Assembly: GCA_046314355.1 (NCBI GenBank)
Contig: JBKBWQ010000001.1
Span: 832,001 to 896,000, forward strand
Source of the DNA: Candidatus Altimarinota bacterium
GTDB taxonomy: Bacteria; Patescibacteriota; Gracilibacteria; 1-14-2-50-48-13
Direction: 5' to 3'
DNA: 64,000 nucleotides
Part shown: positions 28,126 to 58,439 of the stretch, one piece after another
Layout of the letters: each line of letters opens with the position of its first letter
Position numbering within the stretch: position 1 is the first letter of the stretch
Position numbers and translations under genes: made by a program
The notes under the pieces: model-generated
What the model saw: only the letters and a program-made list of their open reading frames with translations
Databases searched by the model: none
What the model was told of the DNA's origin: nothing

Positions 28126-28516
28126 AAACCTTTCATGAATTATAAAACATTGAAATTGTAGCCAATAGAAAGTACTTGGCAAGGGAAAGGAGGAAGTAGT
28201 TGAGTAAAAGAGTAAGAGAGTAATTAAGTAAGAGGGGGAGACTCAGGGTGACTGGTGAGAGTGTGGGTAACTTGTTACTAGTTTGGCTCTAAGGATAGGA
28301 ATGAGGATGAGGGGTAAGAATTAGGGTAGATTCAAGTCATAGCACTGCCGAAACTTATGTATCTGGATGCTGCAGTTGTAATCTTGCGAAGAAAATAAAG
28401 GATTACCATCAACATGAAGTAAGTTCCTTTGATTACGACTGTGCACTGGAGCCCGTTGGGCAATCCTTTATGGCTAAAGAAATATCCTTTGAACGGGATG
28501 ACGCTCACGCGAGCGA

Positions 28517-28951
28517 AATGATGAGAGTCTCAGGGCTCAACCCCCTGGGTCCCCCTTCTCAGGGGGATAGCTCATAGGCTCCCCCTCCCCGAGCCCTGAC
28601 ATGTACCGCAGGTACATCGCCTGGCTACGTAGTGGACTAGTAACTAGTGACGGTCACTAGTTACTAGTCACTCGAGCCCTCATCTAGACCGCACCGTCCC
28701 TGGGGGTTTGGGGGAGGAGAAGCATCTAATTACTCTTAGAAAGCACCCCCTCTGCCAGACGCTTTTCTCCTCCCCCAAGACTTTTGGTTACTTTTGGTCA
28801 CAAAAGTAACGCCCCACAGGCAGGTGAAGAAGAAACCACTTACTTCATCAAGCACCCTTCACCTCACTCAAACCTTTATCTCTTATAAGAGGATTTGTGA
28901 AAACTATAAGAACACTAGTTGAATAAACCAATACCCGACAATGGATTCCCG
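28517..28951. repeat. 435-bp structured intergenic element, copy 2
   Basis: Direct repeat of 16989-17423; palindrome at 28635-28669; runs into GGATTCCCGTCTGCACGGTAATGACG. Confidence 0.95.
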
Positions 28952-28984
28952 TCTGCACGGTAATGACGGGATTTTTGTCACAAA

Positions 28985-29019
28985 AAAAGCCCTTCCACCG
29001 GCAAGGTGGAAAGACTTTT
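28985..29019 (-). terminator. Intrinsic terminator after the lipoprotein gene
   Basis: aaaagcccttccacc-ggcaa-ggtggaaagactttt. Confidence 0.75.
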
Positions 29020-29037
29020 AAGATCTCAATACTCATA

Positions 29038-29754
29038 TTATCTTCTCCTTATAGTCTTTCTCGGAGTTGTAGTAGTTTTCTTTGGAGTAGTAGTCTTCTT
29101 AATAGTAGGGCTTGCAGCCTTCGCTTTACTCTGAGTCACAGCCTGAGATAACCCTGAGCTCTTCTGTGCAGCATCAGTCTTCACCTGAGAGAGTGAATTC
29201 TTATCAATAGGTCTAGAGTACTCACTAGCAGTTCGCGCAGGAGGCATAGCGTATGATCTTCCAAAGATAGCATTCGCGATCATTCCGCCAACGATAGCTC
29301 CACCTACTGATGTGAGAAAAGTTTGGAGAAAAGGAGAAGTACCCCCCTGCTCTACCTTTTGTACCTCCTCATCAACTTTTGCCTTCAATTCATCAGGCGT
29401 CATAGTCTGGAATTCAGGCACAAGCTTTTGACTATAGTTGTATACAGCGAGTGTAGAACCACTTGCTGTTCCACATACCTGATATGCAGACATGATCTCA
29501 TCATGATTCTTGGTAGCAGAACAATCTGTGTTTAGTTTAGCAACACTCTCAGCACATTTATACGTACCAGCTGTATCAGTACATTGCATAACACTACATG
29601 GTCCTTTCCCAGATTCACACATCTGAGCATAGAGATTTGTAAGATCAGGGGTCTCAGCAGTAGATGTGCTACTTCCGCATGACGTTAAAAGAAAAAGAGC
29701 TGTAAGACTTAAAAATATTTTTTTCATATATGAGTTTTTCATTAGCAAATACAT
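29038..29754 (-). CDS. Cys-rich lipoprotein, function unknown
   Basis: MKKIFLSLTALFLLTS-C lipobox (likely true start); six further Cys; Gly-rich hydrophobic segment; Lys/Thr-rich basic tail. Confidence 0.8.
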   Translation of the reverse strand: MYLLMKNSYMKKIFLSLTALFLLTSCGSSTSTAETPDLTNLYAQMCESGKGPCSVMQCTDTAGTYKCAESVAKLNTDCSATKNHDEIMSAYQVCGTASGSTLAVYNYSQKLVPEFQTMTPDELKAKVDEEVQKVEQGGTSPFLQTFLTSVGGAIVGGMIANAIFGRSYAMPPARTASEYSRPIDKNSLSQVKTDAAQKSSGLSQAVTQSKAKAASPTIKKTTTPKKTTTTPRKTIRRR

Positions 29755-29853
29755 TTCATACTAGTGAACGTAAAAATAAACACTTTGTTACTTAATCGTA
29801 GTTTTTTAGGTTGCACAATAAGACAGTCCTTTTAATACCCTACTTACAGTTTT

Positions 29854-30300
29854 TTAATAACATCCTTTATTACGAAAGTACTCTACCGCTGGACGAATAT
29901 TCATCGCGCAGTCTGCAGGAAGATCATCTATATCATGCCACGCATACTCACGTACATCTCGACCTGGGGTAATAGTCTCTGTTTGCCTACTAGCATAGTA
30001 ATGAAAGAGAATAATAGTGAGAGGTTTCCCGTCTTTTTCTTTCTGAATATCCATTACAAATGGTTCGCCTTCCTCAAGTATCACTTCAAGCCCCAGTTCT
30101 TCCATTACTTCCCTTTCTGCATTTGCTCTAAAGCTATCATCCTGCGCCATAGTTCCACCTGGAAACTTCCAGTAATTATCATCCCCATGCTTATCGAGAA
30201 GAACTTTGTTATCTTCAACAATTACGGGACCTGACGCCATGGTCAGAAGTCTTTCATTTCCTGAGTCATCTGAAGTTGGATAGTTTTTAATGCCAAGCAT
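29854..30300 (-). CDS. NUDIX hydrolase
   Basis: WKFPGGTMAQDDSFRANAEREVMEELGL Nudix box. Confidence 0.92.
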   Translation of the reverse strand: MLGIKNYPTSDDSGNERLLTMASGPVIVEDNKVLLDKHGDDNYWKFPGGTMAQDDSFRANAEREVMEELGLEVILEEGEPFVMDIQKEKDGKPLTIILFHYYASRQTETITPGRDVREYAWHDIDDLPADCAMNIRPAVEYFRNKGCY

Positions 30301-30411
30301 AAAATGTGGTTAAGAATATAGAAATGATAAAACATTCAAAAATAGAATACAAGAAAAAGACACCTATACTATAAGTGCCTGACAAATTTTTGTTTTTTTA
30401 TTTCGCGGTAT

Positions 30412-30537
30412 TTACTTTTTAGTTTCGGCAATACCTCTTGTCTGCAATACATTTGGAGGCCTTGCTTCTGATTTCATCAACTGAGCACCGCAGCCTGCTA
30501 AATTCATAAAAACCAGCACTATTACTATTTTTTTCAT
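30412..30537 (-). CDS. 41-aa small lipoprotein (not in ORF track)
   Basis: MKKIVIVLVFMNLAGCGAQLMKSEARPPNVLQTRGIAETKK; LAGC lipobox; SD AAAGGGG upstream. Confidence 0.7.
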   Translation of the reverse strand: MKKIVIVLVFMNLAGCGAQLMKSEARPPNVLQTRGIAETKK

Positions 30538-30651
30538 TTTGTCCCCTTTCTTAGAACAATATTTTTATTTGTGTGCGCACTATACTTTTCTCAAAATAAT
30601 AGTCAAACACTACTTCATTTTTTATACCATTGCATTTAAAATAGACAAAAT

Positions 30652-30675
30652 AAAACCCGCTTTCGCGGGATTCTT
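30652..30675 (-). terminator. Intrinsic terminator
   Basis: aaaacccgc-tttc-gcgggatt after the 131-aa ORF. Confidence 0.7.
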
Positions 30676-30685
30676 ATTCATATGC

Positions 30686-31081
30686 TTAAGCTGCCGACTG
30701 TTGCCGCACGCTTAGCATTTCTTCTTTTAGTTGGGCTGCTATTTCTTTGAGCAGCTTTCTTTTATACCTATAAACATTTCTTCGCATATTCTCGTATGCA
30801 ATTCCCAGTGATGTGGATACAATATACTCACCCTGAGGAGTGTTATTTATGAATCCTTTGGATAATACTTTATCCCAGGCATTCTCAGTATCCTGCAAAT
30901 AGATGGCAGGATCCAATATATATTTGTATCTTTCAATCTTTTGAATCTGATCAATAAAATTAATCAGATTTTGTTTATAGTCATGAATCACCTGAATTCC
31001 TTCAAGTGTAAAAAAATACAGAATCCCTACTATAGCGTCTTCACCAGATAGTAGACGTTTCTTTAATTTTTTCTGCTGCAC
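30686..31081 (-). CDS. Hypothetical protein
   Basis: 131-aa ORF with AAGGAGG SD and its own terminator; no family recognised. Confidence 0.65.
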   Translation of the reverse strand: MQQKKLKKRLLSGEDAIVGILYFFTLEGIQVIHDYKQNLINFIDQIQKIERYKYILDPAIYLQDTENAWDKVLSKGFINNTPQGEYIVSTSLGIAYENMRRNVYRYKRKLLKEIAAQLKEEMLSVRQQSAA

Positions 31082-31179
31082 TTCACATACCTCCTTTTAA
31101 AATATACACTTACGAATGCATATTTAACACCTAAACACAGATAAGTCAACTATCATTATAAAATTCTCCCTATAATTTC

Positions 31180-32519: not shown

Positions 32520-33929
32520 TTATTCTTGAGTATAGTCTTTCTTTTTCTTATTACGGTAAGTAATAATCATCGGAGTACCAAGGAAATCATACTTTTCACG
32601 AATCTTGTTTTCCAGGTAGCGTTTGTATGAAAAATGAAAGAATTCCTTATCATTTACAAATATAACAAATTCAGGAGGATTGGATCCAACCTGTGTTGCA
32701 TAGTTCACCTTTGGTATATAGCTCTTCGTACCTGTGGGCTGATGTTTCTCAACTATTGCAGCAATATATCTATTCAGGACACCCGTCTCTACACGCTTCG
32801 CTCTTGATGCTAGAGACTGCTCTATCATCTCATACACCGCATGTACATTTTTCTTTTCTTTTGCAGAGACAAATATTACAGATGCCCATGGGAGGAACGG
32901 AAATTTATATCTCAAGTATGCAATATAGAGATCCATAAGATCCGTACCTCTAAATCCTACCGCTCTCAATTCCTCAGGAAGATCCACTTTTTCTTTAATA
33001 AGATCCCATTTATTGATGACGATCACAAGTCCCTTTTTTGCTTCAAGGATATATTCAGCCATATGCATATCCTGCTTCCGGATACCCTTCTCAGCATCCA
33101 TTACAAGAAGACATACATCTGACCGCTCAATGGCACGCTCAGTACGAAGTACACTGAATTTTTCAATTCCCTTTTCAATCTTTCCTCTTCTTCGAATACC
33201 CGCAGTATCCACAAGGACGTATTCCTTGCCGTCATAGGTAAGCAGCGTGTCATTTGAATCACGGGTCGTACCTGCGATATCAGAAACAATTGCTTTTTTG
33301 GAGTCAGAGATTGCATTAAAAAGTGCAGATTTTCCTACATTTGGAGTACCTATAAGCGCAATATGAGGTCTTTTATCCTCTACTATTTCTTCATCCTCTT
33401 TCTCAAATCCAATAGCCTTCAACTCTCTCTGAACTGCTGCCTCTAGCTTATCAAGATTTTTCTTATGGGAGACTGATACAGGTAAAGCCTCTCCAAGACC
33501 AAGTCCGTAGAATCCGGCAATGTATGTCTCAAGTTTTTCATTATCACATTTATTTGCTACAAATATGTAGGGCTTTCCACTTTTTCTAAGTAATGCCGCA
33601 GCTTCCTCATCGGTAGCAAGAATCTCAGCTGCCACATCTACTACGAATATAAGCAGATCTGCTTCCTCAATGGCGAAACGTACCTGTTTCTGTACTTCCT
33701 CTTCAAGGTGCTTATGTCCGTCATCCTCTGTCTCAAGTTCGATGATACCCGCAGTGTCTATGAGGTGAAAAGGCACCTGCTTCTTCTTTGAAATTACTGC
33801 ATCTACCGCATCCCGGGTAGTACCTGGCACATCAGAAATAATCGCTTTGGATTTACCCAAAAAACGATTAAAAAGTGAGGATTTTCCTACATTTGGACGG
33901 CCGATGATGGCGACGATGGGAAGATGCAT
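32520..33929 (-). CDS. der: Ribosome biogenesis GTPase Der (EngA)
   Basis: Two G-domains (GRPNVGKS/GTPNVGKS, GTTRD, DTAG, NKCD/NKWD); KH-like C-terminus with YKRYLEN. Confidence 0.98.
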   Translation of the reverse strand: MHLPIVAIIGRPNVGKSSLFNRFLGKSKAIISDVPGTTRDAVDAVISKKKQVPFHLIDTAGIIELETEDDGHKHLEEEVQKQVRFAIEEADLLIFVVDVAAEILATDEEAAALLRKSGKPYIFVANKCDNEKLETYIAGFYGLGLGEALPVSVSHKKNLDKLEAAVQRELKAIGFEKEDEEIVEDKRPHIALIGTPNVGKSALFNAISDSKKAIVSDIAGTTRDSNDTLLTYDGKEYVLVDTAGIRRRGKIEKGIEKFSVLRTERAIERSDVCLLVMDAEKGIRKQDMHMAEYILEAKKGLVIVINKWDLIKEKVDLPEELRAVGFRGTDLMDLYIAYLRYKFPFLPWASVIFVSAKEKKNVHAVYEMIEQSLASRAKRVETGVLNRYIAAIVEKHQPTGTKSYIPKVNYATQVGSNPPEFVIFVNDKEFFHFSYKRYLENKIREKYDFLGTPMIITYRNKKKKDYTQE

Positions 33930-34013
33930 ACAATATACTGTTCAAAAACTCAAAAGTTGCCACTACCTTAGCCTAGATACGTGGGTCTTGTAAAGGGTAA
34001 AGAACAATATCTG

Positions 34014-34367
34014 CTATTTTTTTCTGAAAAGTGCTTTTATTTTTTTTGTGCAATATTCTGTAAAGGTTTCTGTGAGATCAACATCTTCTCTTAATTCTTC
34101 AACTTTATGCTGCATATACTGGCAGGAAAGACAGTCTGAGAGATTCTTATGAAAATATAGGTCAAAGGGTGTCTGTGTAGGATATTTTTCTGATTTTTTA
34201 AGCTTTTTGTAATAGCTGGAAAACTCAGAAAGCACATCTTTCATTCCAGGTTCTTTAAGTATAAGCCATGAGATCATCTCATCAAAGGTAAGCATATTTC
34301 TATTCTTCATATATTCCTGAAGAAGTTCGCTTCCGTCATGGTCATAAATAGTATGTATTTTTTTCAT
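34014..34367 (-). CDS. Small hypothetical protein, candidate immunity/partner of the upstream 1029-aa protein
   Basis: 117 aa; starts 3 nt after the upstream stop; CLSC (CxxC) plus His/Cys. Confidence 0.6.
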   Translation of the reverse strand: MKKIHTIYDHDGSELLQEYMKNRNMLTFDEMISWLILKEPGMKDVLSEFSSYYKKLKKSEKYPTQTPFDLYFHKNLSDCLSCQYMQHKVEELREDVDLTETFTEYCTKKIKALFRKK

Positions 34368-34370
34368 ATT

Positions 34371-37300
34371 TTATTTGTGAAGTATCTTCTGTTCTAGAGG
34401 TGTAGTAATCTTCTTGGACGTATCAATAATATAGGAAAGAGTCTTGTTTTTAAACTGAGGAGAATTCATTAGTATATCTCTCTTGCCTACTGACTGCAAT
34501 TCAATAAAAGTGTTTTTTCCAGCACCTGAGGTTACCGAGACAGGTATGGTCTTTGCTTGAATTCTCGACAAATAGTCTACTAGTGATTTTCCAGAAATAT
34601 AGTTACTGAGTAGTTCCTGATGATGTACAGCAATTTTGCTTAGGATTTCATCCTGAATTTTTGTCACAGATCCAGTGAAGTTAGTTCGTGGTTGCAATAA
34701 TAAAGAAAATGATCCTCCATTCTGAACAAGTTTTGCATCCAGACCCGGATGCAACTTAAGTATTTCATTTACTTTTACCTTATGTGTGAGCAGTACCATA
34801 TCTCCTAGTTCTGTTCCGCTCATTCCTAGAACTTTTCCTGTCATGTTATTTATCGCACCGAGATTAAATTCCCAAGATGTCAGGGCTACAGGCACTCCTT
34901 TTTCAAAACCTAGTTCATCTAAGGTTCTCATCAATGATACATTAGGAAGTTCATCAAAATTCCTCTCCACAGCAAGAGTTTGTTTTAAAGTAGCAATTCG
35001 GGCCGTTTCTTGTTTTACTCCAGAAGTTTCCTTATAAGCTAATTTTTGTGGTTTTATAGTTCCAATCTGCTTTCCTTTCCCCTTTGTGTCACTCACCCCC
35101 TGGTCTAGAGCAGATTTCATTTCTACCACATCTGTATTTTTTCCAATTCTCGAAGATACCATATACAAATCTCCATCAGACGTCGCACTTTTTGAGAGTC
35201 TGCCGGATTCATGCATGGAGGAGAGATATTTTCCCTGGAGATATTTATATACCTCATCAGGACTTAATCTGCCCTGCACTTCTTTTGACATTTTCTGAGC
35301 ATCATTCATGTAATCATCTCTTAAAAATGAGAAATGTTTTTCCCGGTATTCCAACAGGGCTAATGATTTCTTCTCTTTATCGGAAAGTTTTGGTTTGGCC
35401 TTTAATTTTTTAATTTGAACAAGGGATTGTTCAATGATATCCGAAAAATTTGGTTTTGAAGAAGGCAGCTTTTCCATATATGTATTTATTTCCTTTACCA
35501 AAAGAGTTATTTGATCGGGTACTTTTAGTGTATCAAGTACCTTAAAGTCTTTGCCGAGTTTTTGCTCTAAATGTTTTGAAATACCTTCTTCTACACTTTT
35601 AATAGACTTTTTCATTTTTTCCGCATCCTTGATAAGTGTTCTTTTCAGAAGAGTCTCTTTCATATATACATCTTTTTCCACAATCTTTTTATACTCTTTT
35701 CTTGCCTTATTCATTGTCTTCTTATTGAAACTGAAGAATAACACTTCATCTCCATCTGATGCTTTAATCACTAGAAGGCCTTTATCCTTGTATTTATTTT
35801 GAAGCGTTTTTAAAGCAGCAATAGTCTCATCTCCAGCATCCTTACCAAATATTTTATTGATACTTCCAAGACCTCCGATATCTCCCATAGCCATATAATT
35901 GAACCCCGCATCCTTGAGCATAAGCTGCCCCTCCTTTGAATCAAAAAACTCTCTATTAAGAAGCTTATTTTTATCAAAAAAGTCATTATATTTTTCCGGA
36001 TGATTCTGTTTTAACTTAGAAAAGACTTTATTCTGCAGTGTTTCTGGGCCTATGACCTGCGGCCACTTTATTTTGCCGCTCAGTACAGGACCTATATCTA
36101 TCTTATATTTCCCGGCTACCTTCATCAATGCACCTATACCCTTGATACCATCTGCAGTTTTGACATTCAAAGCAGGGATGGCGCTTGCTATGACTATACC
36201 CATGATCTTTCCTTTTTCTTCATTTGGAAGAGTCTCCCACCAGCTTCCCTTTTCCCGGTATGCAAACTCTATCGCATGTCCAAGCTGTTTGCTCATTCCT
36301 ACCGGATCCTCTGAAAATGATCTTCCGAGAGTACCTGCCACATTTGCGAGACCTGCCACAGTATTATTCTCAGCAAGAACTTTCTGTGCCAGTCCTTTTT
36401 GATCCTTAGGAAGAGTCTTGATGTACATTGCAAGTACTGGGAGCTGTGCCAGGTCGAGTACAAATTTTGCACTTCCCGCTACCGCTTCACCCATTCCTTT
36501 TCCTACTCCTAATGACACTTCCAAGAGCCGCGGCATTGCATCGTTACCAAGACTTTTAGGAAGATCCTTATACCCCATTTTTTCAGCCCAGTCCTTTTGA
36601 TAGGCGATTCTTTTTGAAGGTGTGGAAGAGATCTCTCTATAAAAAGATAACGCCTGGTTTAACTGATTTACAGAGAGAGAAATCTTTTCTTTATTCGCTG
36701 GTGATTGCTTTAATAATGTTCTGAGGTTATCTCTGATCTGTCCAATCTTGCCTTTGATATATGCATTTGAATGCGTCTTAAGAAAAGCATCATAACGCTT
36801 ATAATAGTCACTTGTTTTTCTGATCTCCTGGTATGCCCCCTGCAGGACTGTCTTCTGCTGGAGTACGTCATTGCCGCTTTCATCTGCGGTGATTCCATTC
36901 TTTAAAAAAGTAGGCAGCTGTCTTTTGTACCAGACATTGGCAGCATTCGTATAGTTTTTTATTTCATTTCTAAAATGAGAAGCAGTAGAGACTTCAGAAG
37001 CTTTTAACTGCTGTATATCTTTTTGACTCAATGCCGGCAAATCACTTTTATAGGCAAGCTCAACTGCTTTTTGAATCTCTGGATCAGCTGCCGCCTCTTT
37101 TTTTTCAGAAATCTTAGGAGTGTGCTTATCATAAAGAACCAGGAGCTGATTTGTAATGCTCTCTCCCATCTTTCTTAAACTCTCCTTATCTGACTGCAGT
37201 GTCTTCATACGGTTGAGAGCCGTCATGACTTTCTGCATTTCCGGACTTCTCAGTATTTCTTCCTGTTTCGCCTTTGAAAGACTTGCATTTTTCAGTACAG

Positions 37301-37460
37301 AAGAGAGTGTTTTCTGCTTTGCCTGTACTTTATTTATAAATGCCGCCTCATCAAAAATCTGCTCAGCTTGAGCTCCGAGGAGCTTTTCCTGAGATTTTTC
37401 AACCTCCTGCATTTTACCCTGAATCTCTCCAAAGCTTAAGGATTGCTGTTCAGCAGACAT
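34371..37460 (-). CDS. Large toxin-like protein with two divergent GGDEF-like domains
   Basis: Helical N-terminus; Gly/Ala amphipathic region aa ~315-450; domain 1 (LLNREFF, GDIGGLGSINKIFGKDAGDETI, SDGDEV, ALDQGVSDTKGKGK); domain 2 (LPNVSL, AINNMTG..GDMVL, NGGSFSLLL, IPVSVTSG). Confidence 0.7.
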   Translation of the reverse strand: MSAEQQSLSFGEIQGKMQEVEKSQEKLLGAQAEQIFDEAAFINKVQAKQKTLSSVLKNASLSKAKQEEILRSPEMQKVMTALNRMKTLQSDKESLRKMGESITNQLLVLYDKHTPKISEKKEAAADPEIQKAVELAYKSDLPALSQKDIQQLKASEVSTASHFRNEIKNYTNAANVWYKRQLPTFLKNGITADESGNDVLQQKTVLQGAYQEIRKTSDYYKRYDAFLKTHSNAYIKGKIGQIRDNLRTLLKQSPANKEKISLSVNQLNQALSFYREISSTPSKRIAYQKDWAEKMGYKDLPKSLGNDAMPRLLEVSLGVGKGMGEAVAGSAKFVLDLAQLPVLAMYIKTLPKDQKGLAQKVLAENNTVAGLANVAGTLGRSFSEDPVGMSKQLGHAIEFAYREKGSWWETLPNEEKGKIMGIVIASAIPALNVKTADGIKGIGALMKVAGKYKIDIGPVLSGKIKWPQVIGPETLQNKVFSKLKQNHPEKYNDFFDKNKLLNREFFDSKEGQLMLKDAGFNYMAMGDIGGLGSINKIFGKDAGDETIAALKTLQNKYKDKGLLVIKASDGDEVLFFSFNKKTMNKARKEYKKIVEKDVYMKETLLKRTLIKDAEKMKKSIKSVEEGISKHLEQKLGKDFKVLDTLKVPDQITLLVKEINTYMEKLPSSKPNFSDIIEQSLVQIKKLKAKPKLSDKEKKSLALLEYREKHFSFLRDDYMNDAQKMSKEVQGRLSPDEVYKYLQGKYLSSMHESGRLSKSATSDGDLYMVSSRIGKNTDVVEMKSALDQGVSDTKGKGKQIGTIKPQKLAYKETSGVKQETARIATLKQTLAVERNFDELPNVSLMRTLDELGFEKGVPVALTSWEFNLGAINNMTGKVLGMSGTELGDMVLLTHKVKVNEILKLHPGLDAKLVQNGGSFSLLLQPRTNFTGSVTKIQDEILSKIAVHHQELLSNYISGKSLVDYLSRIQAKTIPVSVTSGAGKNTFIELQSVGKRDILMNSPQFKNKTLSYIIDTSKKITTPLEQKILHK

Positions 37461-37624
37461 GTATAAATAGAAAAAGAGTTATCTATTCATTATACAGAAT
37501 GCAGTACAGAAGTAGCAATATGGTGATATTGACTAATAAGATAAGTGTCAATAAATATCTAAAACCTAGATAGTTGCATATTTCCGTGAGTGTATGAGAT
37601 AATGATACGAAGTTTACATTTTAA

Positions 37625-37816
37625 ATGGTGTATATGGATACCCAGGATCTTGAAGCAAGACTTAAAGTAGAAGAAGCAAAGCACAGCATACTTCAGCAAA
37701 GTATCATGGAAACAAATGCAGCACAGGTTGCTATCAATAAACTTACTGAGGAGGCTGAAAATATTGATCAAGAAAATGAACAAGACCAGCTACTGCAAAC
37801 TATTGATTCTATCTAA
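37625..37816 (+). CDS. Small acidic coiled-coil hypothetical protein
   Basis: 63 aa, helical, Glu/Gln-rich; 14 nt upstream of the next ORF. Confidence 0.5.
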   Translation: MVYMDTQDLEARLKVEEAKHSILQQSIMETNAAQVAINKLTEEAENIDQENEQDQLLQTIDSI

Positions 37817-37830
37817 ATATTATTATCATT

Positions 37831-38280
37831 ATGGAACAGAACGAATTTAAACCGCAAAGTATAGATAAGATTCAGACTCCTGAGGAATTTGAAAATCGTA
37901 TCAATAAATTGATAAGTGAAAACAAGACAAATCAAGATGCACTCAATCAGAAGGCATATTCTCTTCTAGGAACATCAGAGGCGCTATTTAATAAAATTCT
38001 TGATTTAAAAAGTAAAAATCCAAATAATCCAAAAATTGATGAGTTGAAAGATAAAACATATCAGATTTTAAAAAACAGCAAAACATTTCAAAAAGCTATG
38101 GAACAGCAAGGAGTACTTGCTAATTTTAAGAAACTCTCTCTCTTAAAACAGGCTATATATACTGAAAAAGCAGGAGGAAACACTACTCAGGAAGCAGTAA
38201 AACCAGTATCCAACACCACTGAGAAAGTAGGTTGGAAAAGTAGAACCAACGATGCAATAGGCTCGGATGAGATTCGCTAA
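37831..38280 (+). CDS. Hypothetical helical protein
   Basis: 149-aa ORF, Lys/Asn/Glu-rich, low GC. Confidence 0.6.
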   Translation: MEQNEFKPQSIDKIQTPEEFENRINKLISENKTNQDALNQKAYSLLGTSEALFNKILDLKSKNPNNPKIDELKDKTYQILKNSKTFQKAMEQQGVLANFKKLSLLKQAIYTEKAGGNTTQEAVKPVSNTTEKVGWKSRTNDAIGSDEIR

Positions 38281-38903
38281 TCTTTATACACGAATTCTAC
38301 CATTGCCTGTCCTTCTCTATCAAAATCGATATAGAGATCTTTTTGTTGAGCCAATGCTCTAAAAGTATTCTTTGTTTGAATAATATTTTGATCATTGTCA
38401 CTATAGTTCGAAGTACCGTTGACGGTAAGATCCTTCAATTTTTCTGGATAAGGAACTATAATATGGTATTTTCCGGGTACCTTAATCTGAGCACTTAGGC
38501 GCACCATTGTCTCTTTACCTATATGAAAAATTCCCTCCATGGGGTTTGGTTCATATATAAATGTCTTCTCGGGAAATAACATTGTATGGTTTAAACCCTT
38601 CACTGCGAGAGCTGGAAGATCTTTCGTAAATTTTGCATCGACTGCTCCGATCTCTGCCTCCTGCTCCTGAGTGAGATCAGCTCCTGAGAAACGGTCTATG
38701 TAGTCTGAAGTATCAACATGCACAGTAGGAACATGATATACTGCCTGCTTCCCTACGGTCACTAGTATACTTGTAGCTACTACAACATTTACAAGTCCTT
38801 TAAGCTTATTGAGATATGTCTTTTTTACAGCATGAAGAAGAGGAAGTCTTTTTGGAAGAATCTCTTTTTTGAGCTGCATTCTAGGTTCTTCTGTAAGGGA
38901 CAT
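38277..38903 (-). CDS. Hypothetical single-TM protein
   Basis: Hydrophobic segment GLVNVVVATSILVTV followed by a beta-rich domain. Confidence 0.6.
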   Translation of the reverse strand: MSLTEEPRMQLKKEILPKRLPLLHAVKKTYLNKLKGLVNVVVATSILVTVGKQAVYHVPTVHVDTSDYIDRFSGADLTQEQEAEIGAVDAKFTKDLPALAVKGLNHTMLFPEKTFIYEPNPMEGIFHIGKETMVRLSAQIKVPGKYHIIVPYPEKLKDLTVNGTSNYSDNDQNIIQTKNTFRALAQQKDLYIDFDREGQAMVEFVYKD

Positions 38904-38961
38904 AAAAAGACAAAATATACATAGATATTTTTATTGTATCAAACATCGGTTAAATGCGCCA

Positions 38962-40251
<1,290 letters not shown>

Positions 40252-41799: not shown

Positions 41800-44700
41800 A
41801 TGGCTACACAAAAACAAAAACTCAAGTTATTACTTTTTGGATTTGTCATGCTGGCAACAGCATTTCTACTTCTTTCATATCAAAATGGATCTCTTTTTAA
41901 AAGCGACCTGCTTGGTTCTGATATGCTGAACAATAGTCTAAATAAGGTCTATCATAGACTCTATAGTTATGATGTTTCAAAAAATGTTGGATCATATGAG
42001 AATCTGCCAAATCCAGGGGATCAGAAGTGGATACAGGTTACCAATACCAGTGGAACTGGAAATGTAGGTAGTCTTGTAATGAAAAAAGATTCAGCAAATA
42101 AGTCACTCGGATTGATGAATCTAAAAACTGCAGGTATAGGAAGTGTGCTAGCGGCCAATAACTGGGCAGCTACGGAGAATGATAAAATTGAAATTGAGAC
42201 TCGTGTACAGGTGGTGGGGGCTGCCGGATGCGAGACATCTACAAGTAGTTTTATTCTCTTTAATAACGGAAAAAATACTGGGTATGTAAATTTTTGTAAA
42301 AATCAGATCATCGTGAGTTCCAATACTCAGAGATGGCAGAGAAACTCTCAGTTTGCACCAGGAGCAAAAAATACTATTTCAAATATAGACCTCTCAACAG
42401 CACCAAAGGATATTAAGATAGTTGCAGAAGGAACTAAGATATCAGTGTATGAACAGAAATCCACAGATATCCTACTCGGAGCATTTGAAAGTGCTATGTA
42501 TCTAGGACTTCCTGATTACACAGGTATTACGAATGCCTCTAGAATAAGTGACAGCGCTCTCTTATTTGGTTCATTTGCAACTACCGTAGGCAGCACCAAC
42601 TACGGTACTGAAACTAACTGGGGATATGTAAGAGGAAAAGTCACTCCTCTTAATCAGTTAAGCGGTCCTACAAAAGGTAGCATGAGTTTCTCATATGATG
42701 CCGAAAGTCAAAAACTTCCTGATTACTTAGGTTGGACGAATGTTGGAGGTAGTGATGGATATATGTCCGCAGATAACCGTTTTGTAATAACTCCACAATC
42801 TACCTATAAAACCCTATTGAATCTTCAAGAGTACGATGGATTTGATATAGAAGCTGAATTCCAAAATCAAGTTGTAATCTCATTTGGAACCAATAAAGCA
42901 CAGGGATATGTGACTATTCACGACAGCGGTATGTCCTATACCAAGGGTAGTTCTTCCGTATCAGACTCTTTAATAAATAGCGCAAACTCACTGCATAAAT
43001 TCAAAATTAGTGTAAAAGGAAAAGAGTTCTCTATCACCGAAGTAGGAACTGGTAAAACTATTGTTTCTCCATCAGGAATGCAGGCTCTTTCAACACCTTC
43101 TGAATATGGTTTTGTAAGTTTTGGCGGTTATTATGGTCAGCTAAAAAACATAAAAGTAACAGCAAAACCTTATCTTATAGATAATACTCAAGATGGTTCC
43201 CGTAAGTTTACAAAAGAATACGGATATACCAACGCCTCTTATCCTGCAGATCAAAACTGGACTCCTATTAATGAGAGCAATAATTATAGCCCCAACTTAG
43301 TATACAATCAGTACCTTTCCTTAAGAACTGCTCAGACAGGAAACCTGCTTAATACATTTAAGTGGAATGCAAGCAAGAATGACGATATCTCAATTGAAGC
43401 AAGACTTCGTGTACCGCAGACTCAGTGTGCATTCTCCGCAAGTAACTATCTTATGTTCTCCAACGGAGATAAGATGGGCTACATCACATTCTGTCAGAAT
43501 GAGATACGGGTGAGTGGAGCAGGATTGCCTTTTACAAAAACACTTAGATACAACCAGATCTTCCAGACTCTTCCGCAGAACCAAAGAAACGTATTCCCAT
43601 TCTCTGCAAATATGGCTTCAGAATTTGCAACATTTAAGATTACCTTAAAGGATGGAAAAGATATCATCATAACTACTCCTGATAACCAGACACTTACGAT
43701 CGCAAACGGTCTATACTTCCCTGCTAATGATGCATCACAATCTCCTTATCCTAATGCTCTAGTCTTTGGTAGCGGCAGTAATGAAACAACTACTACACCG
43801 GAAACAAAGTCAGACTGGGAGTACGTAAAATATAAGCTCACTTCCCGTATACAGGATGGTAAGAGCTTTACATATTCATATGATGCAAATCTTACGACTC
43901 CTCCATCTGCACAGGGATGGGTTAGTAATGTTGCCCTTCAATCTTATCCAGAGAGTGCGGTTACTGGCCAGAAAACATATGTAAATGGAAGCTACAGACA
44001 CTATAATACCTATTGGAATGCTAACACAAAAGATACACTTGTCATTGATACAACTGTAAAAAGCAACGCGGGATGTTATGGAGTAGATGATAGTAATACA
44101 AATATTACCTTCTCAAATGGTGTCACAAAAGGAATAGTAGCTTTCTGTAGAAATGCTGTCTATATCTCTGATCCTTCTTCAGGAAATGGATCTAGATATA
44201 TCAGAGCCTATGTTGGTGAACCCAGCAATGCAAATACCATAGATAACTCTACGATGAAAAACTTCAAAATCGTAGTAAAGAATCTTGATATTAGTGTCTT
44301 TGATGTCACTACAGGAAAAGAAGTAGCTACCGTCTGGGGAGGATTTAACACTCCAGTCACAGGATCAGACAAAGATAAAAATATGATTACTTTTGGAGGA
44401 TCTCAGTCTGAATGGAAATATTTTAAGGCAACTTTATCCCAAGAACTTGCTTCTACCGCAGCTTCTGGAGATATACTCCGACTTCACTTTGCAAATGTAA
44501 AATGGAGCATCCTCGATAAAACAGCAAATACTCTCAAATCTACCTTTGATATTACAGAGATCGTACCTGCCGGCACGCTCATAGAAATGTGTACTCGTAA
44601 TACCGCAAGTACAGGAGAGCCAGTTTGTACAAAATCTACTCAGACAGGACCTCATACTTATAGTGTCTTCCCGTCAAAAACTGATGTCCCTCTCAATAAT

Positions 44701-47700
44701 AATGTCCCAGTAGGAGGCGCACCGTCTACAACAACATATGACTGGTTTATAAAAGTAAATGGTATTCCTTATGGAGTAGAAGGTCCACTTACTATATATC
44801 ATTCACCAGAGATCCTCTCTGCATCTACGAATCCTACAAATCCAAAGATCAAAGTACTCTTTGATACTATTCAGGACTCAACAGCAGTACTTCAGGTAGG
44901 AGTAGCTCCTTCACAGTCACAGTATACTCTTGAGACAGTTTGTATTCAGAAAGATACGGGAGGCACAGAAACTTGTAAGAATAATGTCGCTCCGAACAGG
45001 ACAATGACAAATGCGCCCATTATCCAGGATACAGATTATAACTGGTCTATGTACTACGCAGGTTTTAGCGGGTTAACTCCAGGTATAAAATATAAAATTA
45101 ACGTTACTGTCAAACAGTCTGGAGGAACAGTGCCAGTAATCTCCGGAGGTACATTTACTACGCATAAAGCACCTGAATATACGGTCACAAATGGAGTAGT
45201 ATATGGTCTTCCCCAAGATACGGTGCTTATCCCGCGAACTAATTCTGTAAACAATATTCTTTGGACACATGAGGGAAATCCTGCAAAAGCAAATATTAAA
45301 TTTGATCTCAAAGATGCAACAGCAAAGACTGTACAGATTTGTTATAAACTTAATGGAGCCACAGCAAATACATGTAATGCAGTTACAACAAATACGCCAG
45401 GTACCACTAAAACATATAGTGGTGCCGCATCCGGCATTGACCTTACAACAGCCGGTACCAGAACATACCTCTGGAATATACAGATAGATGGCAAACACTT
45501 TGGTGTAGAAGGTACACTTACTGTTACACCTAGTATTACTACTGATGAAGATCCCGCAGTATCAGGTACAAGCGACCCTTCATTTATTCAGTCAGTAGTT
45601 GCACCTCTCGGAGAAACAAGCGCTCATATTACTGTTTCTACTACAGCAAACAGCACTGCAAGCAGCCCATCTATTAAATCATTCTGTATCGTTGATACTT
45701 TAGGTAATAGTCCTATCTGTCAGAATGATCTCTCATATACTTCATACACTGGAACAGCAGCCGGCAACAACTTTATATACGATTACAATTTTGATAATCT
45801 CATACCCGGTACAGTCTATAAAATTCAGTATCAGCAGGTTTACACAAATGCAGGATATCAAACATTCGTTGGAAAGAGCTTCAAGACAAGCAGTACAAAA
45901 GAAATTTCTCTTATCCCGGGAGATGTCATATTCTCAAGCACTGATAATCCTGTAAGAAACCTTTCATGGGTAACTAATAAAGTGAATCAAGAGTATTTAG
46001 AAGTCATCTTTGATGTACTCAATCTCCCTACTCCTACCACTCCTGTAAGCTTCTGTTATAAGGAAGAAAATAATGCTCAGGCTACAGAGACATGTAAGAC
46101 TGCAACAAAGGTATCAGGAACACTGTTCTCAGTGGTAACAGATATACCTCTCAATTCTACAAAAACCTACAGCTGGTATATCAAGATTGGAAGTGAAAAA
46201 TCTGGTACTGCCGGATCAGGTCTAAGCATTACAGTCACTCCTGCAACCCCTGGAACAACAACTCCAGCTGAAGATACTCCTCTCACAGATGAAGGAATCC
46301 CTCTTACTATTACAAATATTACTCAAGATAGTGCACTGCTCACAGCTACAGCGAATGTCACTACGCACGTGGTGAAAAGTATCTGTATTGCGAGAGCTGA
46401 GGATGAGAGTAATGAAATCTGTAATGAGCAGTCTCTGCCAACCGTACAGTCAGGGAATGCAACATATGCAGCTACATTTACAAACCTTCTTCCTGGAAAG
46501 CAGTACACTACACGTGTGCTCTTCACAAGAGGTCTCGCAGCAACTGATCTTTTCAGCCGAAGCGGTCAGAAATTTACTACTGCAACTCCAAGTACCGGCA
46601 CTGTCGATGGTGAAGTTATAGTCACACCTCCTACTGATACGCAGGCTCCAGCAGTGGTGATCACAACTCCAGCAAATGCTGCTGTATTCTCAAAAACATC
46701 TGATATTACTTTCACAGGAACATCAAGTGATCTCGGAGTCGTCACATCAGGCGTTGATAAGATCATGATCGGTCTCAAAGCGACAGGCGCAGATCCAAAA
46801 TGGTTAACATTAGGGACTAGTGCTACATGGGAGACTGCAGAAGTATACTACCCTGCGACTGGTACTGAGACATGGACTTATAATGCACAAGGAAAAACAA
46901 TTACCTGGGAAAATGGAAAAACATATCAGGTATTTGTATATGGAGTGGATAAGGCCTTGAATTCAGGAAAGCCAGTACCAGTGAACTCAACATTTACTTA
47001 TACTCCTCCTGTAGATACCGTAGCACCAACAAGCACTATTACTCTTCCGCTTCCGGGAGCCACATCTATCAATGGTACAGCAAGAGACGAAGGTACACCT
47101 TCAAGCGGACTCAAAAATATGAAAGTCAGCATCAAAAATAACAGTACAAATAAATATTGGAATGGAACAGCTTTCACAGTTGATACTGAAACTTATCTTG
47201 ATGCATCACTAGGAGGTACCACCGGTCTAGACACAGCCTGGAGTTATCCTGCTAGTGGAACTATTGTCTTCGAAGATAACAAAAGCTACACAGTACATGC
47301 ATTTGCAGAAGATAATGTAGGAAATAAAAATAACGCTTCCCCTTCTGTAAGAACATTTACCCATGATGACGGAATAGTGCCGGAGATAGATACTCAAGCT
47401 CCTACGGTAGTAATAGATGCCATAGTAGCAGCTGATACTACGCTCAAAGGAAGTGCAATTGATGCTGGTACTGTTACTTCAGGTATCAAAGAAGTACGTA
47501 TAAGCATCAAAGATAATAGTACTAATAAATGGTTTAACGGTACTGATTTTACAGGAACTGCATCAGCATACATACCTGCTAAGATTACACTTACTGGAGC
47601 TGCAAGTGCCACGTGGGTACTACCAGAGACTGGAGTACTTCCCTTCACTGCAAACGCATCTTATACAGCCTCAGCATATGCGCTAGATACGAAAGATAAT

Positions 47701-55578: not shown

Positions 55579-58439
55579 TGTTCATCGAATCACTTACACT
55601 TAGAGGAATAAAATCATACCGTGAAGAGGTCACAATTCCTTTTCGTGAAGGTATAAACTTTATTGCCGGTAGAAATGGTGCCGGAAAAACCACTATTATT
55701 GAGAGCATAGGATATCTCCTTTTCTGGATACGTCCGTATCAATACAAAGACCTCCTTTCAACTGGTATGAAGGAAGGATTCCTATCTGTTACCTTCAGAG
55801 GAAATGACGAGAGATCATATATTATCTCCCGTGAAATCAGGAAGGATAAGTGTAAATACGTACAGCTCACAGATCTCCAGACAGGAAAAATTATAGAAGG
55901 TGAAGATGTTGTCAGAGAACAGGTTTTTCAGATACATAATATTTTTTCCCTAGATCATCTCGAAGAGATGTTTCAGGAAATCGTAGCAGTTACACAAGGA
56001 AAATTTACCGCCCCTTTTCTCGAAAACGGTATGGAAAAAAAGAGAAAGTTCCAGCGAATGTTTGGACTGGAAACTTATGAGGAAGCTTATAAATTAAGCA
56101 GTCAGTTTCCTGGAATATTAAAAGAAGAAATTCATTCTATAGAAAACGGAATTAAAAATCTTGAGGGACAGCTCCTTCAGAAACCTGAAGAGGAGGAAAA
56201 AGAAAAGAGTCTAAAAGGTGCACTTGAGGTTCTCCAGCAAGATTTTACAAAACTTCAAACGAACTTAAATGAAAAAGAAAAAGTTTTTCTTGAGCAGAAA
56301 AAGATAAAAGAAACACTCGAAAAATACACTGAGGATCTGCGTAGTCTTCGTGAAAATTATAAATTAGAAAAAGGAAAAGAAACGAGTATTGAGGAACAAG
56401 TGAAGAAAAGTCTGGAGGCAAAAGCTGTTTGTGATAAACATTCAAATGATCATAAACAATATGAAGAAACTGAAACTTTATTAGGAAAGCTCTCGGCAGA
56501 TTTATTGAAAGCAGAAAGTATTGAAAGGTCTTTCCAACAGCTTGTTCAAGAAGAGACAAGAATGCTCACTGAAAAAGAAGGTATTGAAAAACGTATTTTG
56601 CAGATTGATGACGTTGTATTACATCCGGAGAAAAATATTGAAAAAGAAATTCAGGAAGCTTCTACGGCATCTACTCATCTGCAAGAAAAAAACACCCTAC
56701 TTATAGAGCAGAAAAAGAAACTCACTTCCCTTTCTGATGCTCGAAATCATCTTGAAAAACTTCTTATAGTTTTCGTACAGGAAGAAGAAACTTTAAAGAA
56801 AACTGAAGATGAAAAAGTTCGTCTTACAAAAGAAATCTCCAAGTTCAGCGACCTTGCAATAAAGAGAAAGAAACTTAAGGATGATGAAGAAGCATTGTTG
56901 GAAATTCAAAAGAAAATAGAGGAAACAATGAGACTTTATACAATTGCAGAGACAAAATTAAGACAGTTCCAGATAGAAGAAAAAACCTGTGCTGACGGTG
57001 AATGTCCGACTTGCGGAACAAAGGGAGATTTTTCCGTACATTTTTCTACAAAGACACAAATCGTAGAGAAAGAAATCCATGAGTTAAAAGAAATACAGCT
57101 TAATCTTCAAAAAGAACTAAAAAAATTTGAAGATATCGATGAAAGAAAGAACACACTTCTGAAAAATGAAGAGGAATTAAGAATTCTCACCACTCACTTA
57201 GATAAATTATCAGCAGAAATAAGTACTACAAATACTGACAAAATACATGAAATTTTCAATGAGATCGAAAAATTGAATATACAAGGTTTCCAACAGCCTA
57301 AAAAGATTTCAAGTGCTTCAGTAAAAGAAATAAATATTTCCCTCTTCAATTACATTTCAAAAAAGAAAACTGCAACTGAACAAAGTGAGCAAGAATTACA
57401 ATTAAGCAAGCAATCAAACGCAGCATTACTTGCAACTCTTCAGGCAAGAAAGTCTGAAGCAGAGAAACAGATATCTGAGAAAGAAGAACTACAGAAAAAG
57501 ATCGCTTCTTTCTCAGAACATCATTCACAACTGGATGCCAAAAAACAGGAGCTTCAGAAAGAACTTACAAAATTCAATGAGATTAAAGAACAGCATGCAA
57601 AACTCTCAGAATATTTAAAAACCCTGAGAAGCGCACACTCCGAATATATGTCCTACTGTAAAGAAGCTGATCGTCTTCCAGACCTTGAAACCAGTCTCAA
57701 AGCACAGCAAATGCTTGCAAATAGTTATCTAGAATCAGGGAAGAAGGCAAAAGAAGAATTTGATGCATTAGAAAAAACTTTTGATCCCCAAGCCTTTGAG
57801 AAATCCCAGGATGAAATAGGTGGATTGAGAGCATTTGTCATGAAAGCCGACACAGAAAAGAAACGTGCAGAGCAGGATCTTCAGGTAACGCAGAAAAGAC
57901 TTGAAGCGCTTTACCAGAAAGAAAAAGAACGAACTGAATGCATCCTGGAAAAAGAAAAAAAAGAAAAGAAACTTCGTAAACTTGAATTCGTAAGAAGTGT
58001 CTTAAATCAAGCAGCTGAGCCTATTGCAACACGTTTCCGTACTCTTTTGTCAGACAAGGCGGCTCTCTTCTTCAGACGACTTTCTCAGGAATCAAGTATG
58101 CTTTCCTGGGGTGAAGATTTTGAAGTATTTCTCATCAGGCAGGAGGATCATATACGAAAGTTTCAGCAGCTTTCTGGAGGTGAACAGATGATCTGTGCCC
58201 TTTCCATCAGACTTGCTCTTATGCAGTATGTATCACCTTTTAAAATCGGATTCTTTGATGAACCTACGCAGAATCTAGATGAAGCTCATAGAAGGAGTTT
58301 AGGAAATCTGCTTCCTCATGTGCTCGATGGATTTGAACAACTTTTTTTGATCTCACACGATGACACCTTTGATGCGATGACAGATAATGTGATTATGCTG
58401 GAAAAGACGGAGGATGGGACAAAAGTAGTCACATTTTGA
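55578..58439 (+). CDS. sbcC: SbcC/Rad50 SMC-family ATPase
   Basis: GRNGAGKTT, Q-loop VTQGKF, long coiled coil with CPTCG zinc hook, LSGGEQ, FFDEPTQNLD, LISHD. Confidence 0.93.
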   Translation: MFIESLTLRGIKSYREEVTIPFREGINFIAGRNGAGKTTIIESIGYLLFWIRPYQYKDLLSTGMKEGFLSVTFRGNDERSYIISREIRKDKCKYVQLTDLQTGKIIEGEDVVREQVFQIHNIFSLDHLEEMFQEIVAVTQGKFTAPFLENGMEKKRKFQRMFGLETYEEAYKLSSQFPGILKEEIHSIENGIKNLEGQLLQKPEEEEKEKSLKGALEVLQQDFTKLQTNLNEKEKVFLEQKKIKETLEKYTEDLRSLRENYKLEKGKETSIEEQVKKSLEAKAVCDKHSNDHKQYEETETLLGKLSADLLKAESIERSFQQLVQEETRMLTEKEGIEKRILQIDDVVLHPEKNIEKEIQEASTASTHLQEKNTLLIEQKKKLTSLSDARNHLEKLLIVFVQEEETLKKTEDEKVRLTKEISKFSDLAIKRKKLKDDEEALLEIQKKIEETMRLYTIAETKLRQFQIEEKTCADGECPTCGTKGDFSVHFSTKTQIVEKEIHELKEIQLNLQKELKKFEDIDERKNTLLKNEEELRILTTHLDKLSAEISTTNTDKIHEIFNEIEKLNIQGFQQPKKISSASVKEINISLFNYISKKKTATEQSEQELQLSKQSNAALLATLQARKSEAEKQISEKEELQKKIASFSEHHSQLDAKKQELQKELTKFNEIKEQHAKLSEYLKTLRSAHSEYMSYCKEADRLPDLETSLKAQQMLANSYLESGKKAKEEFDALEKTFDPQAFEKSQDEIGGLRAFVMKADTEKKRAEQDLQVTQKRLEALYQKEKERTECILEKEKKEKKLRKLEFVRSVLNQAAEPIATRFRTLLSDKAALFFRRLSQESSMLSWGEDFEVFLIRQEDHIRKFQQLSGGEQMICALSIRLALMQYVSPFKIGFFDEPTQNLDEAHRRSLGNLLPHVLDGFEQLFLISHDDTFDAMTDNVIMLEKTEDGTKVVTF

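Follow-up and report, generated by a model that had tools for sequence, protein, structure and literature searches.

We propose that P0001, a 1029-residue protein from a Candidatus Altimarinota bacterium, is a polymorphic-toxin-type protein carrying a GGDEF-family nucleotidyltransferase as its cargo, a reading to which we assign a probability of roughly four in ten. Its gene lies on the minus strand (34371..37460; open reading frame (ORF) and translation under table 11) of a 64,000-nucleotide (nt) stretch of contig JBKBWQ010000001.1 (assembly GCA_046314355.1, positions 832,001 to 896,000), referred to below as the window. Judged by its motifs and profile matches, the first of two C-terminal domains (domain 1) belongs to the GGDEF family and retains D527, D571 and E572, the acids for metal binding and catalysis. 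By profile comparison, a short segment of the Gly/Ala-rich middle region, residues (aa) 406-448, is homologous to a junction module after which tandem paralogous proteins of another genome of the class carry divergent C-termini. A preliminary description, made from the sequence alone, had proposed an exported toxin with a single-chain pair of GGDEF-like domains and a coupled immunity-like gene; the link of the module to toxin-type genes is new, lies beyond the evidence used there and strengthens the toxin-like side of the interpretation. The layout of the locus, in which a predicted helical N-terminus and a Gly/Ala module are followed by a putative C-terminal enzyme and a coupled small gene, P0002 (117 aa; 34014..34367, minus strand), is likewise supported as toxin-like.

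The residue landmarks of the preliminary description were all recovered in translation at their positions, namely LLNREFF (500-506), D527, N535, D544, the signature DGDEV (569-573) and ALDQGVSDTKGKGK (784-797) in domain 1, and N871, D887 and GGSF (915-918) in domain 2. The N-terminal half of domain 1 (aa 497-579; window 35724..35972, minus strand) presents the motifs of a GGDEF N-half in order: the turn (LLNREF), the strand-1 Asp (D527), the Asn (N535), the GxxGD helix (GD544) and the hairpin (D569-G-D-E-V573), such that both the catalytic acidic pair and the strand-1 metal-binding Asp are kept. When aa 490-600 were compared by hhalign with a MAFFT alignment of 25 canonical GGDEF domains, the match reached a probability of 92% (E 6.8e-7) over 81 columns (aa 497-579) and was in register. 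The reference domains were taken from 30 class-genome loci (L011-L040) as stop-free segments with the pattern G[GAS][DE]EF, so that one locus could yield more than one segment. Further searches led to the same family. The AdrA diguanylate cyclase model of NCBIfam matched aa 524-572 (E 0.0039; 15.7 bits, where the cut-off is 402), and a PDB search with a profile of P0001 and its homologue P0003 returned three matches in all, each to the GGDEF protein DgcR (6zxb/6zxc; E 0.22-0.44), with LLNxEF aligned to GLYNRR, D527-x-G-G-x-G-x-x-N535 to DIDKFKNIN and DGDE to GGEE. The best non-self match in 401 class genomes was a canonical 279-aa GGDEF protein (per-genome E 5.2e-5). In an ESM-feature search with aa 480-1029, GGDEF clusters made up 27 of the 30 matches listed, at shared-feature counts of 144-153, a range that the tool itself treats as ambiguous.

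These results bear on the most sceptical explanation, in which the GGDEF resemblance is a chance product of a lysine-rich, low-complexity helical orphan with no kinship to cyclases or toxins. No single database gives a strong E-value (none in Pfam, 0.22 in PDB, 0.0039 in NCBIfam), the structural models are of low confidence and the family has two members, all of which such an account can claim; however, four independent routes (NCBIfam, PDB profile, class-genome scan and hhalign) agree on GGDEF in the same register, and the N-terminal and middle regions of P0001, compared with the GGDEF alignment as controls, gave a probability of 0.2%. Moreover, the hhalign score of domain 1 (42.6) was not approached by any of 100 column shuffles (12.6 +/- 2.8, maximum 24.4), which excludes composition as the cause of the resemblance. 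We regard a chance origin as highly improbable.

The comparison with P0003, the single homologue of P0001, extends to the state of the active site. D527, N535, G570, D571 and E572 are invariant between the two proteins and the signature of P0003 is a canonical GGDEY, a pattern that speaks for a live site. It is set against the possibility of a GGDEF-derived but catalytically dead protein, whose palms would do no more than bind nucleotide or partner, like those of the degenerate GGDEF receptors PelD and LapD, and serve a structural or regulatory role. Several features lean that way: the signature begins with Asp rather than Gly (DGDEV, not GG[DE]EF), Pfam misses domain 1, an insert of ~175 aa splits the domain and leaves the C-terminal half, with its phosphate-binding Lys/Arg, unsupported, and domain 2 lacks the acidic pair. 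Yet D527, D571, E572 and N535 have stayed invariant across two proteins that are 35% identical in domain 1, and the canonical GGDEY of P0003 would be an unexpected retention in a dead site, so that this explanation appears improbable. In GGDEF enzymes an RxxD inhibitory site lies five residues upstream of the signature; the corresponding residues of P0001 read VIKAS and contain no such site.

The insert (aa 580-755; 35196..35723, minus strand), helical in the model, lies between strand 3 and a putative strand 4, and is colinear in P0003 at 27% identity. It is followed by a putative C-terminal half of domain 1 (aa 756-800; 35061..35195, minus strand), in which LYMVSSRIG precedes ALDQGVSDTKGKGK, the latter with K793 and K797. 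By eye we take these to stand in register with the GGDEF motifs TvSiG and ADxALYxAKxxGRN, a resemblance at the level of motifs; BLAST and MAFFT align P0003 differently there, and the stretch aa 756-835 is the least conserved between the two proteins (16% identity). The preliminary description had assigned the whole of domain 1 to GGDEF. Its N-terminal half stands, on the hhalign match and the shuffles given above, while the C-terminal half found no statistical support (hhalign probability 0.15%).

Domain 2 (aa 843-985; 34506..34934, minus strand) is probably a degenerate GGDEF-like palm, as suggested by its motifs and by a predicted model. Against the GGDEF alignment it reached an hhalign probability of 2.4% (E 0.02), with E864 placed on the strand-1 Asp, N871 on the Asn, GD887 on GD and GGSF on GGEEF. 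The acidic pair is not kept in either protein (GGSF in P0001, GGTF in P0003), and the stretch W863-E-x-N-x-G-x-x-N-N-M-T874, which contains E864 and N871, is invariant between them, indicating that it is functionally constrained. For aa 836-1029, an AlphaFold2 (AF2) model from the two-sequence alignment (mean predicted local distance difference test (pLDDT) 53.2, predicted template modelling score (pTM) 0.51), has the topology strand-helix-helix-strand-strand-helix-strand-helix expected of a palm of the GGDEF/class III cyclase type. In Foldseek this model matched best to ferredoxin-like folds of a generic kind, with HUH transposases from E 1.3e-3, PelD at 1.6e-2 and Thg1 at 2.3e-2. Among the top 50 matches listed were 12 GGDEF proteins (9 so titled, together with the ImcA, PA3702 and DosP entries) and 10 class III cyclases, with the longest aligned spans, and also chain 9lq5_B of a type III-B CRISPR effector complex, presumably its Cas10 subunit. 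In the ESM-feature search with aa 830-1029, GGDEF clusters accounted for 17 and unnamed clusters for 12 of the 30 matches listed. With a family of just two members, the structural evidence is weak. The motifs from which the preliminary description took domain 2 to be GGDEF-like are present, but the excess over shuffles is marginal (score 19.7 against 12.1 +/- 2.4; 2 of 100 as high). An internal duplication, with domain 2 as a copy of domain 1, was considered and is not detectable (hhalign probability 0.5% between the two).

The second line of evidence concerns the region that precedes the enzymatic C-terminus. The Gly/Ala-rich module (aa ~315-450; 36111..36518, minus strand), predicted to be helical, was recognized from composition in the preliminary description, and is borne out by counts of 12 Gly and 13 Ala in residues 301-400. 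It overlaps two weakly hydrophobic stretches (326-351 and 418-437) whose Kyte-Doolittle values of 1.2-1.4 fall under those usual for transmembrane segments. The helicity of aa 1-480, as that of the insert (~aa 580-755), comes from a low-confidence model alone (pLDDT 38). The core of the module, aa 406-448 (window 36117-36245; SWWETLPNEEKGKIMGIVIASAIP...), aligns with residues 1024-1084 (QKWQTLTPYDFGIFFGRIIGLIVPVG...) of P0007, a 1232-aa protein of class genome G054 and the second non-self match of the 401-genome scan (per-genome E 3.1e-4). The alignment of the P0001 family (A1) matched P0007 with an hhalign probability of 78% (E 1.8e-5) and a joint profile of P0007 and its tandem paralogue P0008 (1018 aa) with 67% (E 5.3e-5). 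With both sides cropped to the module region, which is represented by a four-way alignment (A5), the probability rose to 89.9% (E 1.7e-6), and the score of 44.4 lay well beyond column shuffles (12.1 +/- 1.9, maximum 21.2; 0 of 150 as high, z 16.8).

The setting of this module in G054 is that of a toxin-type locus. Where their overlap begins, P0007 and P0008 have 67% identity, which drops to ~30% in the body and 18% past the module, so that the module is shared by proteins with differing C-termini, and Pfam recognizes none of their toxin ends. Downstream lie an orphan third copy of the end of the module, joined to 136 aa that nearly duplicate the C-terminus of P0008, and several small or leucine-rich-repeat genes with an N-terminal motif in common. 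Tandem paralogues accompanied by spare toxin and immunity cassettes are the usual picture of a polymorphic-toxin locus. In P0001 the module occupies the corresponding position, ~50 residues before the enzymatic C-terminus of that protein. The same G054 locus (L046/L051; G054:C2:1-11887) also holds a gene for a DSP-type phosphatase.

Beyond these proteins, scans of 401 class genomes found the module in the host genome (G000), three times in G054 and in one weak match; among 401 genomes of the phylum there were four weak matches beside G000, three of which (two ribosomal protein S1 sequences and one signal-peptidase-like protein) were judged by eye to be spurious. The fourth, a 257-aa ORF in a genome from another class of the phylum (L055:592-1365, minus strand; G581:C10), begins with a module-like motif, QWDTLSSEKRGGLAGYAVG... 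(E 0.008, weak), has no Pfam match, and is followed by a 126-aa ORF (L055:199-579, minus strand); together these look like an orphan toxin and immunity cassette. Identity of the module with the Pfam family PT-TG was considered and rejected. That model matches P0009, a 1406-aa protein encoded outside the window in the same genome (L059:6618-10838, minus strand; G000:C1 ~1040617-1044837), near its C-terminus and over the cut-off (28.1 bits), and does not match P0001; the hhalign probability between P0001 and P0009 is 0.09%.

Two properties of the locus itself accord with the proposed toxin-type organization. The stop codon of P0001 (TAA) is separated from the start of P0002 (ATG) by 3 nt (AAT), as the preliminary description had it for a 117-aa CxxC gene. 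In addition, GC content falls at the junction between module and cargo, from 0.421 over aa 1-480 to 0.355 over aa 481-1029 and 0.319 in P0002 (window 0.389), a step that would be expected if cargo and partner cassette had been acquired separately.

A number of observations weigh against the proposal. On the enzyme side, PF00990 finds nothing in the whole host genome at E <= 10 and so misses both domains of P0001, the C-terminal half of domain 1 lacks support, domains 1 and 2 show no detectable similarity to each other, and the position of D544, which we take to be the guanine-contacting Asp by PleD numbering, is Asn in P0003. Foldseek returned nothing at E <= 0.001 for either the domain 2 model or the full-length model; the former has a pLDDT of 53 and the latter (pLDDT 38.2, pTM 0.21) is unusable. 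On the toxin side, the module match was first picked from a scan of 401 genomes, in which ~0.1 such matches are expected by chance, it is short (51-61 columns) and partly hydrophobic, and the module is rare, being found outside G000 in G054 and in weak matches of the class and phylum scans. PT-TG, the recognized family, is found in P0009 of the same genome and not in P0001, and no orphan cassettes or second copy of the module were found in G000. P0001 lacks a signal peptide as well as any trafficking domain known to Pfam, and the two secretion markers searched in G000, WXG100 (best E 0.28) and VirB4 (best E 0.043), remained under their cut-offs. PADLOC and PHROGs gave nothing for P0001. The 2-kb bin 34001-36000 (GC 0.348) is not the minimum of the window, since bin 56001-58000 has 0.345. 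Finally, the single N-terminal homologue, P0003, has the same C-terminus (n = 1). The preliminary description had expected N-terminal homologues with swapped C-termini, and this expectation was not borne out in the one case available; for the toxin architecture as a whole, the layout and the module homology (0 of 150 shuffles) hold, while a trafficking domain and swapped C-termini were not found.

Several of these same observations favor an enzyme that never leaves the cell. P0001 could be a cytoplasmic or membrane-peripheral, lineage-specific GGDEF-type synthase that acts in its own cell, perhaps generating the signal of a small, mobile defence or regulatory module, with P0002 as its regulator or effector and the N-terminus as a sensor or scaffold; we consider this quite possible, if short of probable. 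GGDEF domains are overwhelmingly those of intracellular signalling enzymes, neither an export signal nor a trafficking domain (Pfam) nor either of two secretion markers (WXG100 and VirB4) was found here, P0003 retains the full architecture, and the variable 5-kb insertion in which the gene lies would fit a defence islet. GGDEF generators also occur in conflict systems (PMC7159879) and phage polyvalent proteins (PMC5512222). However, PADLOC matched none of the five proteins of the islet save for a weak methyltransferase match in a 149-aa ORF, the module is common to proteins with toxin-like variable C-termini, and the GC break falls at the module-cargo junction. The genome also offers little to read or remove a c-di-GMP signal: profile searches of G000 (1.69 Mb in 28 contigs, 98% completeness, 3.4% contamination) found no match to GGDEF (E <= 10), EAL (E <= 1) or PilZ (E <= 1), so that a c-di-GMP-type product would be without a known reader or eraser in the producer. 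By comparison, GGDEF domains over the cut-off are present in 68 of 151 class genomes. Relatives of G000 have genomes of 0.7-2.0 Mb, some of them with in-frame TGA codons.

Under the proposed toxin-type reading, the two palms of P0001 would form an intramolecular pseudo-dimer that has no need of regulated homodimerization, since pairing within the chain would make activity independent of regulated dimerization. The enzyme may condense GTP or another nucleoside triphosphate (NTP) to a dinucleotide, whether c-di-GMP, linear pppGpG or another product. Since the catalytic metals would be bound at one site alone, a linear dinucleotide of the pppGpG type would be made first, and might then be closed in a second step or left open. 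Candidate-phyla-radiation bacteria of this kind are thought to live on host cells, and P0001 may be deployed against another cell, in which dinucleotide signalling would be distorted or the GTP/NTP pool drained. In the producer, P0002 would keep the enzyme blocked. The fullest form of this scenario is that P0001 represents the first GGDEF warhead in a polymorphic-toxin-type protein, by which an episymbiont lacking its own c-di-GMP circuitry delivers a constitutively paired synthase, with one active and one degenerate domain in a single chain, to hijack c-di-GMP signalling or drain GTP, with P0002 as inhibitor; in all its parts, we judge this to be rather unlikely.

Diguanylate cyclases are known as regulated, homodimerizing signalling enzymes of the cell that produces them. 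Were P0001 a deployed effector, the GGDEF fold would join the short list of nucleotide-synthesizing toxins, a degenerate partner domain in the same chain would represent a way to a constitutively active GGDEF fold, and a molecular handle would be gained on the manipulation or attack of hosts by small-genome episymbiotic bacteria, which is largely unknown. The junction module, which lies outside Pfam, may mark further toxins in these phyla. Should P0001 instead remain in its own cell, it would still be an unusual, split and twinned GGDEF protein in a genome with no PilZ match, and the lack of any known c-di-GMP reader among the families searched would suggest that it works through some other product or receptor.

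Set beside canonical GGDEF cyclases (PF00990; DgcR, PleD), domain 1 shares the xLLNxxF turn, the strand-1 Asp, the Asn, the G-x-x-G-D helix and the [DG]GDE[VY] hairpin. It differs from them in falling under every curated threshold, including that for membership in PF00990, in the change of the first signature Gly to Asp, in the absence of RxxD and of a sensor domain, in the ~175-aa insert after strand 3, in its place at the end of a toxin-like protein and in a host genome without a PilZ receptor or EAL phosphodiesterase match. The proposed pairing of an intact and a degenerate palm, for which the two candidate domains follow each other in the expected order, recalls Cas10 from type III CRISPR systems and the paired C1 and C2 of class III adenylyl cyclases; in contrast to these, the motifs of P0001 are GGDEF proper (an xLTGLxNRR-type turn), there is no CRISPR context, and its two domains, the palm pairing of which we infer, have no detectable mutual similarity.

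Among polymorphic toxins the nearest relative is the P0007/P0008 locus, with which P0001 shares the junction module and the enzymatic C-terminus that follows it, and to which type of system the small gene at 3 nt and the GC break also belong. P0001 differs from polymorphic toxins in lacking LXG, RHS or PAAR domains (Pfam), a PT-TG match and orphan cassettes, and its cargo, at ~550 aa, greatly exceeds in size the ends of P0007 and P0008 (110-150 aa). A full-text literature search, within the texts it covers, found no published GGDEF cargo in a polymorphic toxin, and in a 2026 survey of PT-TG architectures the terms 'GGDEF' and 'cyclase' are absent from the main text, although architectures may be listed in its supplements (PMC13483458). 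The closest analogy in function is with secreted (p)ppApp synthetases, which are reported to kill through nucleotide synthesis and depletion of the NTP pool (PMC12691689, PMC11782079). With P0001 these would share an analogy of function alone, the RelA/SpoT fold being unrelated to the GGDEF palm. The original work on Tas1 reportedly describes an exported (p)ppApp synthetase toxin of this type. GGDEF domains are also reported in phage and plasmid polyvalent proteins (PMC5512222) and in vWA-MoxR conflict systems (PMC7159879). Like P0001, these place GGDEF in conflict-type multi-part proteins rather than in sensor-regulated signalling; unlike P0001, they have recognizable domains in injected or intracellular sensor systems, and the passages cited describe no comparable module, degenerate twin or coupled gene.

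The family to which P0001 belongs is extremely small. An exhaustive phmmer search of 1.84 billion representative proteins (E <= 0.001) returned two, the query and P0003 (1044 aa; E 5.3e-69), which is encoded on one 21.8-kb contig of the Logan assemblies and matches P0001 colinearly along its whole length (29-33% identity; BLASTP E 3e-77). Identity is highest in aa 1-115 (63%; 37116..37460, minus strand), a strongly conserved N-terminal segment that is predicted to be helical, followed by the N-terminal half of domain 1 (35%) and domain 2 (30%), and is 15-28% elsewhere. Its conservation suggests that aa 1-115 may have a role in trafficking or partner binding; Pfam gives no family for P0001 at E <= 1, this segment included. 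Word-based searches recovered the query alone among 8000 scored candidates of similar length and none of 7998 shorter candidates at E <= 0.001, and genome and metagenome contig scans with the P0001/P0003 alignment, made with two N-terminal peptide patterns, returned nothing. In 40 relatives, P0001 gave one weak match, to a canonical GGDEF protein, and in the 401 class genomes the P0001/P0003 profile gave two weak non-self matches, the GGDEF protein and P0007 described above, and nothing more.

P0002 is a candidate immunity protein, inhibitor or chaperone for P0001, as its position suggests. It contains three cysteines, C79-x-x-C82 and C106, all of which are kept in its single homologue, P0004 (117 aa, 79% identity), found on contigs of at most 1061 bp, also of the Logan assemblies; this conservation indicates a real, constrained gene. 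It has no family in Pfam, NCBIfam or PADLOC, matches in PHROGs at E 0.019-0.078 to families of unknown function alone, and has no PDB relative at E <= 10. No paralogue was found in its own genome, no relative in G054, G023 or G581, and nothing in genome and metagenome contig scans with the P0002/P0004 alignment. Complex prediction of P0001 aa 480-1029 with P0002 gave an ipSAE interface score of 0.00 in two runs without controls, which is evidence neither way.

Both genes lie within a 5-kb lineage-specific insertion (33930..38961) between der (32520-33929) and tgt (38962-40152). In the family relatives G002 and G001 the block of tsaD, an M23 peptidase, an ORF, Wzy_C, der and tgt is conserved and der adjoins tgt. 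The insertion has a GC content of 0.369 against 0.389 for the window, and its flanks carry only short, chance-like repeats. Beside P0001 and P0002 it holds three orphan ORFs without a Pfam family: one of 63 aa (37625-37816, plus strand), the one of 149 aa with the weak PADLOC methyltransferase match (37831-38280, plus strand) and one of 208 aa with an N-terminal hydrophobic anchor (38277-38903, minus strand). A consensus scan placed a promoter-like TTGCTA-18-TATAAT sequence at 37489..37518 (minus strand), 28 nt ahead of the first codon of P0001; the region shows no excess of such sequences over shuffles (15 against 13.5 +/- 3.5). No terminator-like site was found between P0002 and der. Among the sequencing runs listed, the stretch occurs in one, X1, which may be the source sample, and in no RNA data set.

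Two further loci of the window were noted. At 41800-50454 (plus strand), 4.3 kb from P0001/P0002, a 2884-aa protein carries S-layer-homology domains at its C-terminus, together with weak matches to fibronectin-III and Big_3_4, and is presumably a giant surface protein. On the other side, the interval 28183-31179 spans ~3.0 kb, compared with 1.4 kb between the homologous genes in G002, and contains a NUDIX gene (29854-30300) and two family-less ORFs.

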